Below are positions 1-11,624 of a DNA stretch of 64,000 nt, in pieces (position 1 is the first letter of the stretch; the number at the start of each line of letters is the position of its first letter). Under the pieces are notes generated by a model, which had not been told where the DNA came from, ran no database searches, and saw only the letters and a list, made by a program, of their open reading frames with translations. The position numbers were made by a program, and so were the translations under genes. Origin of the DNA: Syntrophorhabdaceae bacterium (GTDB lineage Bacteria; Desulfobacterota; Syntrophorhabdia; Syntrophorhabdales; Syntrophorhabdaceae); the NCBI GenBank assembly GCA_963666485.2, contig CAXXUO010000001.1, forward strand, positions 192,001 through 256,000. The letters are read 5' to 3'.

Positions 1-146
1 TTACCGGAAAATCAAGACAGGCTCATGCCGGACAGGGAACGGCTGGAAAGTATGTTCGGATGAACACAATATTCCCCAGAATCGGGATGCGCGAATGAAG
101 GTGTTTATTCTTTGAAGAACGTCCCCCTCCTTCCCGCTTCTTTTTT

Positions 147-1013
147 TCAATTGTCAGATTTCCACCGGCCGCCTTCCTCGGCGAATGTGCTCCACTGGTT
201 ACCGGAGAAGATGATGACCGCTGTTCCGCCACGCACGACAACGCGCTTGATATTCTTGAGGGAATCTTCCATATCCTTTGCGGCCTCCTGCGCGAATGCC
301 TTCGCCTCATCCGCGCTCATCCGGGCGAGAAGAAGGTCCGTCCTGGCGTTTGACCGTTCGGTCGACAGGCGCTTGACCGCGTCAAAATCGCCTTTCTTCA
401 GAGCGTTGATCTTTTCCTTCAGGACCTTTGCCTGCGGGCTGTCCTGTGCGGCCTTGCCCTTAAGGTCGGCAGTGACCGGCAATTCATTGAAAAGCGGGGC
501 GCTGAATTTTACAGAGAAGGATATCGTCGGTATCTCATCGTTTCCGGCACCCTTCTCGGTATACTCGGTTTCCCCCGAAACCCGTGTCTTTGAGACGGCA
601 AGGTTCTTGAAAAGCTTCTTTCCGGAATCGCTGCGGCTCAGGGTCGTGAGCGACATGCCCTGTCGGGAAGGCTTCCGGAGAATTGTCACAACCATCTTAC
701 TCTGGTCCGCCGGATCGAACTGGAGGAGGAGTCCGCGGACCTTGCCTTCTTTGGCCAGGGTCGTGACCGGCAGGAAGGCTATTCCCCGCAGGGACTCCTG
801 AGGAACCTTCCTGTCCGCCAGCACTATGCGGATCTCTTTCGGGCGGTCGAGCAATCCTTCGGCGTTGTCGTGGAATTGGGCATAAGCCTCTTTCAACTCG
901 ATCGTTTCATTATTGATCACGAGAGTGCCTTGCACCCTGCCGGGATCGATAGCGTGCGCCGCTTGAAAACACAACAGCAGAAGAATAAGAAAACTCAGAA
1001 CGGTTCTTGTCAT
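147..1013 (-). CDS. Hypothetical exported protein
   Basis: 288-aa ORF with a signal-peptide-like N-terminus (MTRTVLSFLILLLLCFQAAHA); family not recognised. Confidence 0.75.
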   Translation of the reverse strand: MTRTVLSFLILLLLCFQAAHAIDPGRVQGTLVINNETIELKEAYAQFHDNAEGLLDRPKEIRIVLADRKVPQESLRGIAFLPVTTLAKEGKVRGLLLQFDPADQSKMVVTILRKPSRQGMSLTTLSRSDSGKKLFKNLAVSKTRVSGETEYTEKGAGNDEIPTISFSVKFSAPLFNELPVTADLKGKAAQDSPQAKVLKEKINALKKGDFDAVKRLSTERSNARTDLLLARMSADEAKAFAQEAAKDMEDSLKNIKRVVVRGGTAVIIFSGNQWSTFAEEGGRWKSDN

Positions 1014-1042
1014 AGTTCCCCCAACGTAACCACTATTTTTCT

Positions 1043-1309
1043 CTACGTATGATCAAATATCAGCTGCTTTGCTTCGACGCCGTCAATAGCATTTAATTTC
1101 TGCGTGAATTCGTGAAAACGCGAATCGGCCCCCACAAATTCGACCAGCAGTATACCGCCGGTCGAGGCCTCTTTGTCGTCGAGCTCATGTAATCCTAACC
1201 GTGTCTTTATGTTGCCTCCAAAATCGGTTAGGACCTGCTGTACCGGCAGCGCACGCACCAGCCGCTCCGTGACGTGAATCCCGAGAATGAGGTGTTTAGC
1301 TTTCTTCAT
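1043..1309 (-). CDS. Small ACT-like protein, TM1266/iron-only hydrogenase system regulator-like
   Basis: 88 aa with the motif VQQVLTDFGGNIKTRLGLHE; GGAGG RBS upstream. Confidence 0.6.
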   Translation of the reverse strand: MKKAKHLILGIHVTERLVRALPVQQVLTDFGGNIKTRLGLHELDDKEASTGGILLVEFVGADSRFHEFTQKLNAIDGVEAKQLIFDHT

Positions 1310-1580
1310 AACGTAACCTCCTGAGATAATGGTATTGTGGTGTATGATAGAATTATATCACGTTTAGGCCGTTTCCCGGCTTCAACGTAATTCAATTTCG
1401 ACATGCCTGCCGTGCCTTCTTGGCCTGCCCTTATCAATTGCGTGCATTGGGGGTCATCACACATTGTGCGTGAGACAGGCTGCAAACAAGGAATGGCGAC
1501 AGCTTAAAGAAGATCTCGTCATGCAAGCGTTCCATTACACGACCTGACCCCATAATTCTTGCAAGCTGGCAGAAGGTGAC

Positions 1581-1612
1581 GAGATATTGACATATTCAGG
1601 AACGTACCCGGT
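1581..1612 (+). repeat. Module-boundary motif, degenerate full copy
   Basis: gagatattgacatattcaggaacgtacccgg aligns with the copies at 3883, 3963 and 4726. Confidence 0.65.
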
Positions 1613-1852
1613 TTACCGACTCACCTTCATACATATTGTGCGTGATAGGCCACGGTGCAAGATTACCCCACTGTGCTGAAATAACAACATATTTAGTCTT
1701 TCATGACTCTACCCCGTCTTGCAAAAGAGGAAGGTCTCGGAGGATAATTTTTAACAAGGGCAAGCCGGGTCCAGGCGTGACGTCACGACAGCTATTGATC
1801 CGTTGGTTGCCAACGAGACCGCGGGAAATTGCGGGAACCACAGGAGGGTGCA

Positions 1853-2671
1853 ATGATCGATACATTGACCAACTTTGACCGTTTTTTAACCGTTTATCTT
1901 ATTCCCGTCGGGTGGAAAGTTCTCGGTGCCATCGTCCTGTGGATAGCAGGAGGCTGGGCGATCAGGATTATCGGGAATCTTTCGGGAAAGGGAATGCGGG
2001 CGCAAAAATTGGATCCCACGCTCATTAAGTACTTCGATGCCACTATCCGGGTTATCCTCAAAATAGTCCTTGTCATAGCGATCCTTTCCATCTTCGGCAT
2101 CCAGACCACGTCCTTCGTGGCCCTGATCGCTGCTGCCGGCATCGCTATCGGGGCAGCTTGGGGAGGTCTCCTGGCAAATTTCGCGGCCGGCGCCTTTCTC
2201 ATTATTCTGAGGCCTTTTCATGTCGGGGACATGATCACGGCAGCCGGGATGACGGGCGATGTCAGGGAAATCGGACTATTCGCCACAACCATCGATACAG
2301 TAGACAATCTCCGTGTTGTTGTGGGCAACAACAAGATCCTGTCGGACAACATCGTCAACTATACGACCAACCCGTTCCGACGCGTCGACCTGAAAGCACA
2401 GCTTGCCCAGAGTGTGGACCCCAATGAAGCAGCGACGCGCCTCACGGAACGGGTAAAGAAGATACCAAACGTCGTGGAGTCTCCCGCCCCGTCCGTGGAG
2501 ATACTGGAATTCAACCTCGCCGGACCGGTGCTCGCTGTGCGCCCTTTCTGCCACAACAAAGATTACTGGCAAGTGTTCTTTGACACGAACAGGGCAATAC
2601 AGGAGGTTTGCGCAACGGCCGGCTATGCAGCGCCGTGGACGAACCGGGTGGTTTATCATAAACCCCTGTAA
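1853..2671 (+). CDS. mscS: Small-conductance mechanosensitive channel
   Basis: Three hydrophobic segments, LANFAAG and RPFHVGD motifs; ATG at 1853 after a GGAGG RBS. Confidence 0.9.
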   Translation: MIDTLTNFDRFLTVYLIPVGWKVLGAIVLWIAGGWAIRIIGNLSGKGMRAQKLDPTLIKYFDATIRVILKIVLVIAILSIFGIQTTSFVALIAAAGIAIGAAWGGLLANFAAGAFLIILRPFHVGDMITAAGMTGDVREIGLFATTIDTVDNLRVVVGNNKILSDNIVNYTTNPFRRVDLKAQLAQSVDPNEAATRLTERVKKIPNVVESPAPSVEILEFNLAGPVLAVRPFCHNKDYWQVFFDTNRAIQEVCATAGYAAPWTNRVVYHKPL

Positions 2672-2710
2672 TGCCTGATGTCAGGTCAAGGAGAGACAGC
2701 GGGAAGGCAG

Positions 2711-2733
2711 GGGACGTCCCTGACTTCCTGCAT
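2711..2733 (+). repeat. Module-boundary motif, core only
   Basis: gggacgtccctgacttcctgcat; 2715-2733 matches 4000-4018 at 18/19 positions. Confidence 0.7.
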
Positions 2734-2734
2734 G

Positions 2735-3220
2735 CTACTTTGCCAAACGTACGGGAAGAACTCTTTGAAAAAGGTTGGTTGACTGCTTGAGCCACATCCG
2801 TTTGCCGCCGAAGAATTCTAAACCGGCGACCTCAGAACCTCGCGTTTCGGACGCCAGCACCAGGTCGCATGAAAATCGGATCAATTTTGTCAGATGTTCC
2901 TCTCCACATTCAGACTGGTAGGTCTTGCTCCTGTCATACAGGCCGGCAAGTTCGTCCAGGGTCGGCATCCGCCAGTCTGTGTAGCCGCCGCCGCGAAAAT
3001 TCTGGCAATATGATCTGGCATTGGAATAGCTGATGTCGCTTCCGTTGTCCTTTGCCGCCCACATAAGATTGGTCCTCGTATCGAGAACCGTTCCGTTGTC
3101 GTAGGCGATAAAAGGGCCATCCCGACCCGTCTCTCCCGCCGTGACATATTGGGCAGCGATGATTCCTGCAAAAGCGGCCATTATCAGTACCGCCGCCATT
3201 GTTGCCGATGGTCTTCTCAT
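2735..3220 (-). CDS. DUF1566 (Lcl C-terminal) domain exported protein
   Basis: Signal peptide followed by NGTVLDTRTNLMW and GGYTDWRMPTLDEL signatures. Confidence 0.85.
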   Translation of the reverse strand: MRRPSATMAAVLIMAAFAGIIAAQYVTAGETGRDGPFIAYDNGTVLDTRTNLMWAAKDNGSDISYSNARSYCQNFRGGGYTDWRMPTLDELAGLYDRSKTYQSECGEEHLTKLIRFSCDLVLASETRGSEVAGLEFFGGKRMWLKQSTNLFQRVLPVRLAK

Positions 3221-3401
3221 ACCCGGACCCCCTTTCGCTTTATGTTTTCCACTTCAACTGCCTGACTTTTCTCAGGCATCAAAAATCATCCGATCTCCGG
3301 CCCTCCCTCTTAGCTGGCTCGTTAGGCTTGGACTTGACCCGGACAGACAGGACCGTCCTTTAAGGACGCCCTATCTTCCCTGTCTTCGAGGGGTCTTCCT
3401 G

Positions 3402-3710
3402 TTAATATTTGTCGGGATTGAAGTTGCCTTCATGACCGAAATGCTTTTTATTCGCATTTTTCTGAGCCGCTATGTCGCTCGCGCTGGCTCCGTTGTCATG
3501 CATCCTGGTAATGATCTTATCCGCGGCGTTCTTGCGCTTTTGATCCATATCTTTTTCTTTTTGCGTGGATTGACCTGACGTAGTGCCTGTTTTCGAAGTG
3601 TCCGCCGCCATTACATTCAATGCCTGACCGGCGAAAAAGCTGCATGATACGACTAATGCGCTCAACAAAACCAGGGTTCTTCCTTTCATGATCTCTCTCC
3701 TTCCGGGCAT
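3402..3710 (-). CDS. Small hypothetical exported protein (start possibly 3689)
   Basis: Signal-peptide-like MKGRTLVLLSALVVSCSFFAG followed by a hydrophilic tail. Confidence 0.65.
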   Translation of the reverse strand: MPGRREIMKGRTLVLLSALVVSCSFFAGQALNVMAADTSKTGTTSGQSTQKEKDMDQKRKNAADKIITRMHDNGASASDIAAQKNANKKHFGHEGNFNPDKY

Positions 3711-3882
3711 TTTTTGTGATTGAGTATATCAGAGCATGTACGGGTTTTCAATGCCAGGGTTGGCAAGGGCAAAAGCCTTCCTCAGGTTTGCTCAAATCCA
3801 GAGATCCCGGCGTCGTACCGACTCGTAGTCTTTTGCTGACCCCGTTCCCTTTCCCTTTCGCGGCCAATCGGCGACAAAAGGA

Positions 3883-4018
3883 GAGATATTGAGATATTTG
3901 AGGACGTCCCCGAGCCCCATTACGAACCCCCCTGAGAGATTCCCTGACCCGCAACGAGGGCCGAGATATTGGCATATCTAAGGACGTCCCCGAGTTCCTC
4001 GTCCCTGAGTTCCTGCAT
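3883..4018 (+). repeat. Two full boundary motifs (3883-3914, 3963-3999) plus a tandem core copy (4000-4018)
   Basis: gagatattgagatatttgaggacgtccccgag; gagatattggcatatctaaggacgtccccgagttcct; cgtccctgagttcctgcat. Confidence 0.85.
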
Positions 4019-4145
4019 CACCACTAGAGTTCTAAAATGGTGATATTGCAAGTTCTGATCTCATGTTTCTGTTGACATAATATCAGGAAATTCGTACACT
4101 CAAATCTCGAAACGAGTAAATTTTTGACCACAAAAGGGGAAACAG

Positions 4146-4490
4146 ATGAAAAAGCTGAACATAATGATGGGCGCTTCCATATTTCTTTTGGCAATATTCA
4201 TTGTTAACGCAACGGCGTACGAAAGAGTATACAGCTACGAGCCCGAAACAGAATATGTCGGGCAAGGGGTCGTTGATTTTAAGAATATAACACCAGAACA
4301 GTGCCTGGCGGCTTGCAAACGGGAAGGCCGGTGTGGGTATTATACCTGGTATCCTGCCGGCGCGCCATCAGCAAGCACCCGGTATTCCCCGGCTGAGAAC
4401 AAATATACGCGGTGTTTACTTATGATGGGCCCGTTCAAAAAGTACACGAAGAGGGCGGCCATCTCCGGCATGATACAGGAGAGCAGATAA
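4146..4490 (+). CDS. Exported PAN/apple-like domain protein
   Basis: Signal peptide; C-x3-C-x5-C-x4-W ... CLL ... ISG pattern. Confidence 0.7.
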   Translation: MKKLNIMMGASIFLLAIFIVNATAYERVYSYEPETEYVGQGVVDFKNITPEQCLAACKREGRCGYYTWYPAGAPSASTRYSPAENKYTRCLLMMGPFKKYTKRAAISGMIQESR

Positions 4491-4536
4491 CCAAGAGTTC
4501 TTCACGTGTCGAGAATCATGTCCGGTCCGCAGTACC

Positions 4537-4622
4537 GAAAATAAGGCGCCAAGTAAGGCGCCATATTTTTTTATAAAAAACTCAGTAACGACCTACTTTC
4601 CTACAGAGTCGCCCCTGCAGTA
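4537..4622 (-). pseudogene. Displaced copy of the 5S rRNA 3' end plus terminator
   Basis: 4587-4622 matches 6534-6569 at 34/36; the ggcgcc hairpin at 4544-4563 mirrors 6489-6508. Confidence 0.9.
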
Positions 4623-4636
4623 AGGGCGTCCCTGAC
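4621..4636 (+). repeat. Module-boundary motif core fused to the 5S fragment
   Basis: taagggcgtccctgac starts exactly where the 5S similarity ends. Confidence 0.7.
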
Positions 4637-4725
4637 TCTCTGACTATCCTAAGGACAGAAGGCCTAGATATTTCTCTAAAATCACCGAGGTTGTTCAATC
4701 GTAGGCTCTACCCCCTGTTTTGAGC

Positions 4726-4758
4726 AAATATTGACATATCCAAGGACGTCCCTCAGTT
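4726..4758 (+). repeat. Module-boundary motif, full copy
   Basis: aaatattgacatatccaaggacgtccctcagtt. Confidence 0.8.
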
Positions 4759-4849
4759 ACTTTTTAACGAACGCTCCTGGTCGCCCTATAATCTTTGGTA
4801 ACTCTGCCTGACTTTGTGTAAGATAAGGATCAGATGAGGAGATGCAATC

Positions 4850-5311
4850 ATGGATGAACTGACCGATTCCCATTCCTGGGCTGTAAAAGGGGATAAGCTT
4901 AGGGCGGACAAAAATTGGCCGGAGCTTATCAAACACTGTGAAAACTGGCTAAAAAAATACCCTGGAGAGCTCAGCGCTCAAATCCTTCTTGGGGAAGCAT
5001 ATAACAATGCAGGCCGATACCAGGAATCGATGGACCTCTATTTCAAAGTCGTTACAAAAAGACCCAATGATTATGCGACCTGGTATTTGCTCGGTTCTCT
5101 CGCTGTCAGAGTCGGGAAAACTGAGGAAGCTATCAACTACTTCTCAATGGCAGTCTACACGAACCGTGATATGGGGGCGACAATCAAATCGACGTACCCG
5201 GACCTTTACGAAAAAGTAAGAAAACAATCCGGTTCGAATAGAATATTGCGGCTTTGCGTCGGAATAATCATTCTTATCCTGTTTGCAATCGCGGTCTGGA
5301 TATTTTTCTAA
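4850..5311 (+). CDS. TPR protein with a C-terminal membrane anchor
   Basis: TPR-like helices (LGEAYNNAGRYQES, TWYLLGSL..GKTEEAI), hydrophobic C-terminus, GAGGAG RBS. Confidence 0.8.
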   Translation: MDELTDSHSWAVKGDKLRADKNWPELIKHCENWLKKYPGELSAQILLGEAYNNAGRYQESMDLYFKVVTKRPNDYATWYLLGSLAVRVGKTEEAINYFSMAVYTNRDMGATIKSTYPDLYEKVRKQSGSNRILRLCVGIIILILFAIAVWIFF

Positions 5312-5519
5312 ATTAATCACGTACATTCAACGCGTTCTTCCCCGCTGAGATTCAAGGGGCGTTGAAGCCCCCCAAACACTCCGGACAACTGAGTCAACAA
5401 CGCTCCCTTTTTTATATTGAGTGACTCGATATTCCAAAGTTAAGGATCTGCCCGATATATTACTTTTTAACGAACGTTCCTAATCACCCGAATTATTGAA
5501 GATCGTTCGAATCCTCTTC

Positions 5520-5969
5520 CTAGGGCAATGGGGGCATCTTGCCGGTGCTCTTCCCATCCTTCGCATATTTGAGGGCGATTCCGACTGTCATATCCTCCGG
5601 GCTGCCTTTTACAAGGATGCTGCTAAACCTTCCATTCCTTGTTTGTTCCGATTCCGGGTATTCAAGAACTATCTCGCCCTTCTCACTATACCAATGGGAT
5701 TCCAGTATCCTTGTCCCGCGCGGCTCGTTTGTACGGGCTTCGACCTTATCGAGGATCCTCTTGGTCTTCATGGCGGGCTCCGGTTTATCATTCACTGTCA
5801 GCCGCCAGTATGTGATCGTGTCCTTGTTCCTGGTGACACTGTCGGAGTCTATGTAGTATTTTGCCGTTATGCCAAGCATCGTATTGGTAGTAACATGCAC
5901 CCAGTTCGTCGCAAACGCACTACCGGAGAAGAAAAGAAATGCCAGGAAGCAGAAGATAACTTTTTTCAT
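5520..5969 (-). CDS. Exported protein, surface-adhesin E-like
   Basis: Signal peptide MKKVIFCFLAFLFFSGSAFA followed by NWV...YYIDSDSV...YW; GGAGG RBS. Confidence 0.7.
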   Translation of the reverse strand: MKKVIFCFLAFLFFSGSAFATNWVHVTTNTMLGITAKYYIDSDSVTRNKDTITYWRLTVNDKPEPAMKTKRILDKVEARTNEPRGTRILESHWYSEKGEIVLEYPESEQTRNGRFSSILVKGSPEDMTVGIALKYAKDGKSTGKMPPLP

Positions 5970-6147
5970 ACCGCGAACCTCCCTTATAAATGATTCCGGC
6001 GATCTCGGAGAACACATTCAGGCAACATGTCCGCTATATAATAAAAATCGATCGTCGCTCTTGCAATCAAATTAATGAGGCATGATGATCAATATTCGAC
6101 TCATTCTTTAAAAAAGCACTAAAAGCCCAAAATTTGAAGACGGAAAA

Positions 6148-6377
6148 CCTTGGATCCCGGTGTCAAGCACCGGGATCACGGCACGTAATAAAGGATAACG
6201 GGCTAAAATAAACAAATGATGGGCTAATAATAAAATATATAATTTCAAAGGCAAAGACACTGGATGGCAATGACAACCAACTGGATTCCCGCATTCGCGG
6301 GAATGACGGATTGTTAGGTTTCGTGGAAAGTTATTTTGTTGGATTTCTTGCGGATTATTCCGGCAAAGCCGGAATCA
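6148..6377. repeat. Cluster of REP-like palindromes (6148-6180, 6281-6308, 6352-6376)
   Basis: ccttggatcccggtgtcaagcaccgggatcacg; ctggattcccgcattcgcgggaatgacg; attccggcaaagccggaat. Confidence 0.8.
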
Positions 6378-6481
6378 ATAATAGTTTCAGCCGCAAGGCC
6401 TGAAATCCTTTTTGGTCCGGCCGAACGTCAGTAAAACTAGGATGTGCGCACCAGTCCGGCAGGCCGAGGTGCTTTTTTACG

Positions 6482-6515
6482 AAAAAAAAGGCGCCTTTTT
6501 GGGCGCCTGTTTTTT
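6482..6515 (-). terminator. Intrinsic terminator of the rrn operon
   Basis: aggcgcc-loop-ggcgcct stem flanked by A and T runs, immediately after 5S. Confidence 0.8.
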
Positions 6516-6526
6516 CGTAAAAAAAG

Positions 6527-6645
6527 ACCCGGCAACGACCTACTTTCCCACAGAGTCACCCCTGCAGTATCATCGGCGCGGTAGAGCTTAACTGCCGTGT
6601 TCGGGATGGGAACGGGTGTGGCCTCTACGCTATGGTCACCGGGAA
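6527..6645 (-). rRNA. rrf: 5S rRNA
   Basis: Reverse complement contains cccatcccgaacac and gaaagtaggtcgttgcc; ends approximate. Confidence 0.97.
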
Positions 6646-6705
6646 ACTTTTTGAATCTATAAATTTTTAGGACAACTATATACGTTATTGAAAATTTTTG
6701 ATTAA

Positions 6706-9709
<3,004 letters not shown>

Positions 9710-10059: not shown

Positions 10060-11624
<1,565 letters not shown>

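Follow-up and report, generated by a model that had tools for sequence, protein, structure and literature searches.

Genomic islands and prophages that integrate into the 3' ends of tRNA and tmRNA genes leave behind a restored gene at one end of the insert (attL) and a displaced 3' fragment of the same gene at the other end (attR). Joints made by homology-facilitated illegitimate recombination (HFIR) have a microhomology of 3-10 nt; illegitimate and homology-facilitated illegitimate recombination are reportedly the subject of work by de Vries and Wackernagel and by Prudhomme et al., both from 2002. A third group, the REPtrons and TIRtrons, is described by Di Nocera et al. 2013 (PMC3733652) as IS200-like Y1 HUH transposase genes flanked by inverted dispersed repeats. 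The locus described here can be compared with each of these systems. It is a piece of about 100 nt (positions 4521-4622), which appears to combine the final 43 nt of a 5S rRNA gene with the terminator region that once followed it, and it is located in a 64,000-nt stretch of DNA, referred to as the window, which corresponds to C1:192001-256000 of the 3.77-Mb, 10-contig genome of a Syntrophorhabdaceae bacterium (G000). Positions given without a contig name are window positions, G numbers denote related genomes, and L numbers denote loci from these genomes or from metagenome contigs. The piece is very probably a scar of recombination without an integrase, and not an attachment site. As an event it is a fresh instance of a type already known, the recombination scar located at a repeat, and this small scar records the assembly of variable DNA behind the only rRNA operon of the bacterium. 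For its origin a tentative account is preferred, with a probability of roughly 45%, in which the 5S tail came together with the adjacent gene for a PAN-like protein from behind a 5S gene and was illegitimately joined at the repeat core.

The single rrn operon of G000 lies on the minus strand within a 1.4-Mb contig and comprises the 16S rRNA gene (10065-11624), tRNA-Ile and tRNA-Ala, the 23S rRNA gene (6705-9709) and the sole 5S gene of the genome (Table 1). When 4537-4636 is searched against the whole genome with blastn-short, a 36-nt match between 4587-4622 and 6534-6569 (C1:198534-198569) is found with an E value of 4.5e-9, and there is no further match with E < 1. The 5S-derived part can be extended to 43 nt, up to the end of the gene; the five differences in this part are all transitions, and three of them are within the final seven bases of the 5S gene. 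The homology continues colinearly beyond the 5S part, as shown by an 88-nt blastn match of 79.5% identity (4538-4622 versus 6483-6569), and a gapped alignment carries the similarity on past the terminator hairpin to about 4521. In the other direction the similarity breaks off sharply, since the match ends at 4622 in 8/8 comparisons with the 5S genes of seven other genomes of the genus, and this is exactly where the repeat core AAGGGCGTCCC begins. The microhomology at the joint is only T/A, 1-2 nt, fitting both the 5S gene (..GCAGTA/TCATC) and the repeat (..T/AAGG). An initial annotation, made from the window sequence alone, had described the 34/36 match in the same orientation, the diverged terminator hairpin beside it, the stop of the similarity at the boundary motif and a change of the helix loop from GTGA to GCGA, still a GNRA tetraloop; all these observations are borne out, and the comparison with the rrn copies of the genome returns this single match, to its only 5S gene. 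The fragment folds into the same 8-bp hairpin as the working gene (GCGA for GUGA in the loop; -14.2 versus -12.2 kcal/mol), with a stability that is not significant when compared with shuffled sequences in either copy (z -1.3 and -0.9). None of the five substitutions is present in the seven distinct 5S 3' variants among the loci compared. With the whole operon as the blastn query, no rrn piece other than the 88-nt one is found in the genome, and among 20 genomes of the genus a truncated 5S copy is present only in G000, the other 19 having no extra 5S piece, with the exception of an orphan 5S-like copy in G006.

When compared with the islands in tRNA and tmRNA genes, the locus has a similar arrangement: unrelated genes over about 2 kb separate the intact RNA gene from a copy of its 3' end in direct orientation, both 5S copies being on the minus strand. 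However, the segment has no integrase or excisionase: no recombinase family is detected among the eight open reading frames scanned in 147-5969, and the reading frames between the two 5S copies code only for a TPR protein and an Adhesin_E-like lipoprotein. The repeated sequence, 34/36 identical in its core, extends for about 60 nt further into the diverged terminator at roughly 75% identity, and relatives have the TPR gene of the supposed island beside their 5S gene without a displaced fragment. An empty site, in which the 5S gene is directly followed by the flank of the PAN gene, is not found; relatives of the PAN gene are present in 0/40 related genomes, and 110 pattern matches in metagenome contigs yielded no confirmed relative. 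The titles listed in a literature search for 5S genes as island integration sites concern tRNA-type cases only. The layout of an intact gene with a displaced 3' fragment, to which the initial annotation had pointed, thus stands, but its interpretation as the footprint of an island is unlikely, given the lack of an integrase and the relatives without a fragment. As a caution, this layout alone is no proof of a site-specific island.

The likeness to HFIR scars is that a gene fragment is sharply joined to unrelated DNA, next to the highly conserved rrn operon as a possible anchor, in a region that differs between relatives. The 1-2 nt that fit both sides of the joint are minimal when set against the 3-10 nt of HFIR joints, the joint is located at a transposase-associated repeat, and no donor was identified. 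With orphan 5S genes and rRNA pseudogene remnants the locus shares the presence of a non-functional 5S piece near a working operon, G006 having an orphan decayed 5S; it differs in that only the last 43 nt of the gene are kept, with a sharp break and nothing beyond it.

The boundary motif is, as judged by sequence comparison, a transposase-associated dispersed inverted repeat, which is a known kind of element. The core is present 199 times in the genome when at most one mismatch is allowed, with 6 copies in the region 100-4800 of the window against 0.25 expected, and the pattern [AC][AG]GG[AG]CGTCCC has 92 genomic matches. Copies of the repeat in the window are at 1584, 3886, 3966, 4622 and 4728. 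A manual count of the 92 matches distinguishes two subfamilies by their leader, one with ATATT(G/C)ACATATT (about 11 copies) and one with CTTACTTTCTT (about 44 copies). Inverted pairs with a spacing of about 90 nt are frequent among the copies, with short tandem units after them, and the one cluster that was read is geneless. The core is followed by one to three of these tandem units, which are 10-25 nt long, start with GTCCC or repeat the core, and vary by copy (window 3985-4015; C4:210703-210760, C2:653527-653560 and C1:679947-680010 of G000).

Two paralogs with 46% identity, at C2:655334-656335 and C1:678809-679798, code in this genome for Y1 (IS200-like) transposases fused to a DnaA-type C-terminal helix-turn-helix. 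Inverted repeats of one subfamily, a different one for each gene, stand on both sides, the C2 gene being flanked by repeats at 655062-655175 (minus) and 656332 (plus) and the C1 gene by repeats at 678782 (minus) and 679947-680044 (plus), and the core AAGGACGTCCCC is common to both subfamilies. The domains are PF01797 (33.2 bits, cut-off 23) and PF08299, and the HAH motif and the tyrosine of NRYKS are visible in the translation. These genes were located by tblastn; a genome-wide search with Pfam Y1_Tnp is empty at E 0.01, although the protein passes the family cut-off. Inverted repeats of 18-30 nt also flank 5/5 homologues checked in G007, G011 and G091, and they start with GGGGACG or GGGACG in four of the five, the 18-nt repeat of L079 being AT-rich. 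A TIRtron-like family is thus conserved across two families of the order, and the inverted repeats of these HUH transposases share the GGGGACG start in several genomes of both.

The likeness to REPtrons and TIRtrons is that both genes with Y1_Tnp and DnaA_C domains are flanked by inverted, dispersed repeats, which often occur as inverted pairs. Differences are that the repeat of G000 has neither a GTAG tag nor a clear stem-loop, that its core, in our own comparison, matches the GGGGWSAS consensus of PMC3733652 at only 6/8 positions, and that the protein scores 61.6 bits with NCBIfam REP_Tyr_transpos, below the cut-off of 80 bits. This comparison accounts for the boundary motif, but not for the 5S fragment, which breaks at the exact edge of a repeat from a little-studied class of HUH transposases with a DnaA-type DNA-binding domain. 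The idea that the cores are the bounds of mobile single-gene cassettes was considered and has become less probable: the cores are dense in this part of G000 but are not a general cassette boundary. A core is located at most 110 nt upstream of the TPR module in 4/9 distinct loci as determined by script, plus one by eye, and near the MscS gene (300 nt upstream, 200 nt downstream) in none of three genomes (G011, G013 and G014).

The PAN gene, its terminator and the 5S tail are near the right end of a block of 4.66 kb. In this block, the genes for a 288-aa protein, a TM1266-like protein, an MscS channel, an Lcl_C-domain protein and a 102-aa protein are followed by the PAN gene with the terminator and the 5S tail. 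Next come the core at 4622, what remains of the tail of a second TPR module, and the motif copy at 4728. On its left side the block is preceded by a core and a conserved gene, the end of which is at 1-60, and on its right side it is followed by a degenerate core and the TPR module. The homology to the TPR modules of all relatives begins at 4780-4794, and the limits of this module (L014-L019 and L062-L072) are close to 4794-5318 in all relatives, in at least five different neighbourhoods (other ones also in G012 and G009). In the nearest species genome by RpoB identity, G011 (97%; the next is G007, 96%), the TPR module is 0.4 kb from the 5S gene; this distance is 3.5 kb in G018 and 6.3 kb in G002, where an orthologue of the C2 transposase gene stands between the two, and a 92%-identical wastewater contig, which ends 64 nt past 4784, has the TPR gene, the lipoprotein gene and the 5S gene together. 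A second 5S piece next to this TPR-5S arrangement is not found in G011, G002 or G018. When metagenome contigs were searched with five aligned TPR proteins, 13 loci were obtained, of which 11 are clear relatives, and a 5S gene is within reach in only one of these, the contig of G011 itself. In L063 and L067 the conserved gene is followed by one core (GAAGAACGTCCC or ACGTCCCC), 16 nt and the TPR module, which implies that the extra DNA in G000 is the 4.66-kb block with the PAN gene and the 5S tail. Together with the lack of a recombinase and the TPR modules beside 5S genes without a fragment, this join argues that the block is added DNA, and the absence of the PAN gene from the 40 relatives is as expected of imported DNA. 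The DNA behind the 5S gene is variable throughout the genus, as follows from the different neighbours in G007 (a homologue of C1:187.6-188.2k of G000, 18 nt from the 5S-downstream region) and G013 (a homologue of C1:174k) when compared with the TPR-bearing relatives. Synteny in the genus is low in general.

The PAN-like protein is matched by the PAN_4 profile with E 2e-5 and 25 bits, which is below the 27-bit cut-off, and a promoter-like site precedes its gene at 4072-4100. The terminator-like hairpin starts 55 nt past the PAN stop codon, and the fold of 4536-4580 is strongly non-random (z -5.3 and -5.5; 0/200 shuffled sequences fold as well). This hairpin is now probably the terminator of the PAN gene, and such a role would explain that it is intact while the final bases of the 5S tail have decayed. 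The region 4521-4579 aligns to the 5S-downstream regions of G007, G002, G011, G003 and G000 itself, and the whole spacer between the PAN gene and the 5S tail aligns with the 5S-downstream regions of the genus, best with that of G007 (64/93 over 4494-4579). The alignment scores of the fragment's terminator are 26 for G007, 23 for G002, 22 for G011 and 22 for the working copy of G000 (19-26 for other species), so that it has no clear nearest relative and these scores point to no donor, and the working terminator of G000 is closest to that of G011, with a score of 38. At the sequence level, the homology of the spacer, a terminator score that is no better for the own copy and the closeness of the working terminator to that of G011 support an earlier place of the PAN gene behind a 5S gene.

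These data can be described by the following sequence of events. The PAN gene and the tail would have moved from directly behind a 5S gene, either of another member of the genus or of an earlier arrangement of the same genome, into the 4.66-kb block of small gene modules between the conserved gene and the TPR module, and illegitimate recombination without an integrase would have joined the broken 5S end to a transposase-associated repeat copy, at the 5' edge of the latter. Afterwards, the 5S part would have drifted, acquiring its five transitions, and the hairpin would have stayed intact, serving the PAN gene as a terminator. Breakage associated with the repeat is an attractive but unproven cause of the joint. 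The initial annotation had offered two readings, of which the capture of a module from behind the 5S gene of a relative fits better, the donor that it supposes not having been found. Several points weigh against this capture. Neither a donor nor a relative with the PAN gene behind an intact 5S gene is found in the 40 genomes and the metagenome contigs, and the direction of the move is inferred. The state of L063 and L067 could also have arisen if a G000-like ancestor lost the DNA between its two direct cores, and the gene of G007 at 18 nt from the 5S-downstream region fits equally with the fragment side being the old native flank of the 5S gene. The 5S part (5/43) and the terminator part (12/47) show no clear difference in divergence, such that an old copy of the own tail is also compatible with the data. 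In addition, the joint has a microhomology of only 1-2 nt, and arrays of 5S tails in G091 (described below) look like serial insertion directly behind a 5S gene.

Table 1. Features of the window near the 5S fragment and the working 5S gene.
Feature	Position	Strand	Remarks
Repeat core AAGAACGTCCC	115..125	+	Left edge of the 4.66-kb block absent from L063 and L067
Full motif copy ATATTGGCATATCTAAGGACGTCCCC..., upstream of the PAN gene	3966..3999	+	Second copy at 3886-3919
Gene for small secreted PAN-like protein, 114 aa	4146..4490	+	5S-tail region is its 3' flank
5S-downstream-like region with hairpin 4545-4562 (GGCGCC-AAGTAA-GGCGCC)	4521..4579		Terminator-like on both strands
5S remnant, last 43 nt of the gene	4580..4622	-	38/43 to 6527-6569; core 4587-4622 34/36
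Repeat core AAGGGCGTCCC	4622..4632	+	Abuts the 5S break directly; 1-2 nt (TA) fit both sides
Second TPR module, remnant of its 3' tail and of the region downstream	4661..4727	+	Homologous to G011 L014 8994-9053
Full motif copy ATATTGACATATCCAAGGACGTCCCT...	4728..4761	+	Repeat family
Promoter-like site TTAACG-17-TATAAT, right edge of the block	4764..4792	+	Overlaps degenerate core AACGAACGCTCC at 4766-4777
TPR protein gene, 153 aa, C-terminal membrane helix	4850..5311	+	Conserved module 4794-5318, several genomic contexts
Adhesin_E-like lipoprotein gene	5520..5969	-	PF16747, 28.9 bits, cut-off 23.7
Dispersed-repeat copy	6136..6186		Many copies in G000 and relatives
Second dispersed-repeat family, copy	6278..6316		Many copies in G000 and relatives
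Working 5S gene, terminator hairpin	6489..6508		Terminator-like on both strands
Sole 5S rRNA gene, at the end of the single rrn operon	6527..6643	-	111 bits

It is possible, though rather unlikely, that the 1.95-kb segment with the TPR and lipoprotein genes was instead inserted into the 5S gene and brought a replacement tail and terminator, in which case the order PAN, terminator and 5S would be the old native one. Such an insertion could have occurred by rrn-anchored recombination with an illegitimate far end, as in HFIR, or by an integrase supplied in trans. For foreign DNA no anchor is better conserved than the rrn operon, and the succession of intact gene, insert and displaced 3' fragment in the same orientation agrees with this explanation. 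The corresponding site of G007 looks empty, having the conserved gene at 18 nt from the 5S-downstream region and no TPR gene, and the flank of the fragment aligns with this region of G007 as far as the stop codon of the PAN gene. Likewise, two 5S tails come after the intact 5S gene of G091, separated by toxin-antitoxin genes, which is the pattern that serial insertion would leave. However, the segment has no recombinase, and the TPR module stands beside the 5S gene in G011, G002 and G018 without a displaced fragment. The working terminator, which would have been brought in, is nearest to that of G011 (38, versus 22 for the fragment) and looks vertically inherited, and the working 5S tail carries the AGTCACC variant and not the AATCACT of G011-type genomes. 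Further steps would also be needed for the join of the conserved gene with the TPR module in L063 and L067, and in L067 neither the lipoprotein gene nor a 5S gene is present in the 2.1 kb behind the TPR module. The other reading of the initial annotation, in which 4623-6569 inserted into the 5S gene and rebuilt the 3' end of the latter, is therefore disfavoured by the lack of a recombinase, by the relatives without a fragment and by the join in L063 and L067.

Extra 5S genes are known in other bacteria, for example the second 5S gene in an rrn operon of E. coli, and the fragment could be the residue of a second 5S gene, most of which was deleted; such a gene could have been an extra copy in tandem or part of a second rrn operon of this lineage. 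In agreement with this, the 5S part is better preserved than the terminator part, as expected of a 5S gene that was working recently, and an orphan decayed 5S-like copy is present in G006, of the same genus. Nevertheless, this origin is improbable. The covariance model RF00001 detects no decayed full 5S gene in 4400-4900, scoring only 13.5 bits (E 6.8, over 4580-4689), and the other rRNA pieces expected of a former operon are not found in the genome. Moreover, none of the other 19 genomes of the genus has a second 5S gene at this place, G000 has a single rrn operon, within a 1.4-Mb contig, and the break coincides with the repeat core. A full second 5S gene that simply decayed, which the initial annotation had named as a refuting case, finds no counterpart in the covariance search or in the other genomes.

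A local origin, in which about 100 nt of the genome's 5S tail and its terminator were copied to a place at a distance of 1.9 kb and then diverged, is judged to be quite improbable. It could have arisen as filler DNA during the repair of a break at the repeat core, or as a long target duplication. The 88 nt that are colinear with the own copy at 79.5% identity, in the same orientation and at a distance of 1.95 kb, agree with a local copy, and the divergence of the 5S and terminator parts is statistically compatible. However, the terminator of the fragment is no closer to the own one than to those of other species, with a wholly different loop, and the homology to 5S-downstream regions reaches within 4-30 nt of the PAN stop codon, which suggests an old neighbourhood and not a patch.

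Any 5S match is found in 53/96 genomes of the order, and among these extra copies are present in G000, G091 and G006. In G091, which belongs to another family of the order, L055 (G091:C173, 1-2600) contains the 23S gene, the 5S gene with its terminator, HicB-like and RelB/ParE genes, a 5S tail of 61 nt and half a terminator, PIN/MazE-type genes, and a 5S tail of 50 nt with a terminator. Two more 5S tails are thus stacked behind the 5S gene between toxin-antitoxin modules. Each of them is preceded by a copy of the 85-copy repeat TTTCGCGATTCGCGATT, which is also present in the 23S-5S spacer and is different from the inverted repeat of the Y1 transposase genes of that genome; the parallel with G000 is limited to a dispersed repeat that abuts the break. 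The array looks like the result of repeated addition behind the 5S gene, or of a tandem duplication of the unit of spacer, 5S gene and terminator. A gene for an LRR-Roc-COR-TIR protein is found after this array.

The array of G091 gives a modest hint that the accumulation of 5S tails behind rRNA operons is commoner than has been noticed. A more general explanation, which is considered to be very doubtful, is that small modules dock repeatedly at the end of the rrn operon, arriving with a fresh 5S tail and terminator and needing no integrase. Strand transfer by Y1/HUH proteins (RAYT/TIRYT-like) at the repeat cores and read-through capture of the flanking DNA could provide the mechanism, and the footprints would be the one 5S tail of G000 and the two of G091, each of the latter abutting the 85-copy repeat of that genome. 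If the cases of G000 and G091 have a common cause, rRNA operons would be predictable places of gene gain at their 3' end.

Although rRNA regions and repeats often break assemblies, a misassembly or a chance similarity can be dismissed as highly improbable, considering the genome-wide E value of 4.5e-9, the five differences from the working copy, so that the fragment is not a collapsed repeat, and a 12,472-nt Logan contig from a different assembler, which covers 4100-6171 with no differences in each of two runs of one sample and for which no joint is reported at 4622. This contig is support from a second assembler, probably for the source sample, and not independent DNA.

The orphan 5S-like copy of G006 (L030; G006:C103, 1506-1613; 46 bits) has no 23S gene beside it and is present in addition to the working 5S gene. 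Its 3' 57 nt are identical to the 5S of the G000/G007 type and not to the variant of G006 itself, which indicates either a transfer between species or a mis-binned contig. A 43-nt fragment in G076 proved to be merely a contig end, and the matches in G021 and G070 likewise begin at a contig end. Weak matches of 22-26 nt are found in G052, G072 and G068, and the locus of G052 (L057) contains only a tRNA. A search at the level of the class returned the same genomes as the search of the order and added nothing.

Several minor features are found in the surrounding DNA. Partial copies of the 3' end of the TPR module are present at 4661-4680 and in G002 (L015, 8952-9051). The MscS gene (1829-2671) is found in most of the genus with 75-86% DNA identity, and it has other neighbours in G011, G013 and G014. 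An exact 17-nt repeat, TTACTTTTTAACGAACG, is present at 4757-4773 and 5460-5476 and in two further genomic copies; it resembles the CTTACTTTCTTAAGGACG repeat in a degenerate state. Its first copy is the -35 side of the promoter-like site of the TPR gene, and its second copy points into the antisense strand of the lipoprotein gene. Of the two dispersed repeats between the lipoprotein gene and the working 5S gene, one has the palindrome CCCGGTG..CACCGGG and one has GGATTCCCGC..GCGGGAATGAC, and these two repeats give depth spikes of hundreds to thousands in the metagenome contig sets (bins 6101-6187 and 6275-6361).

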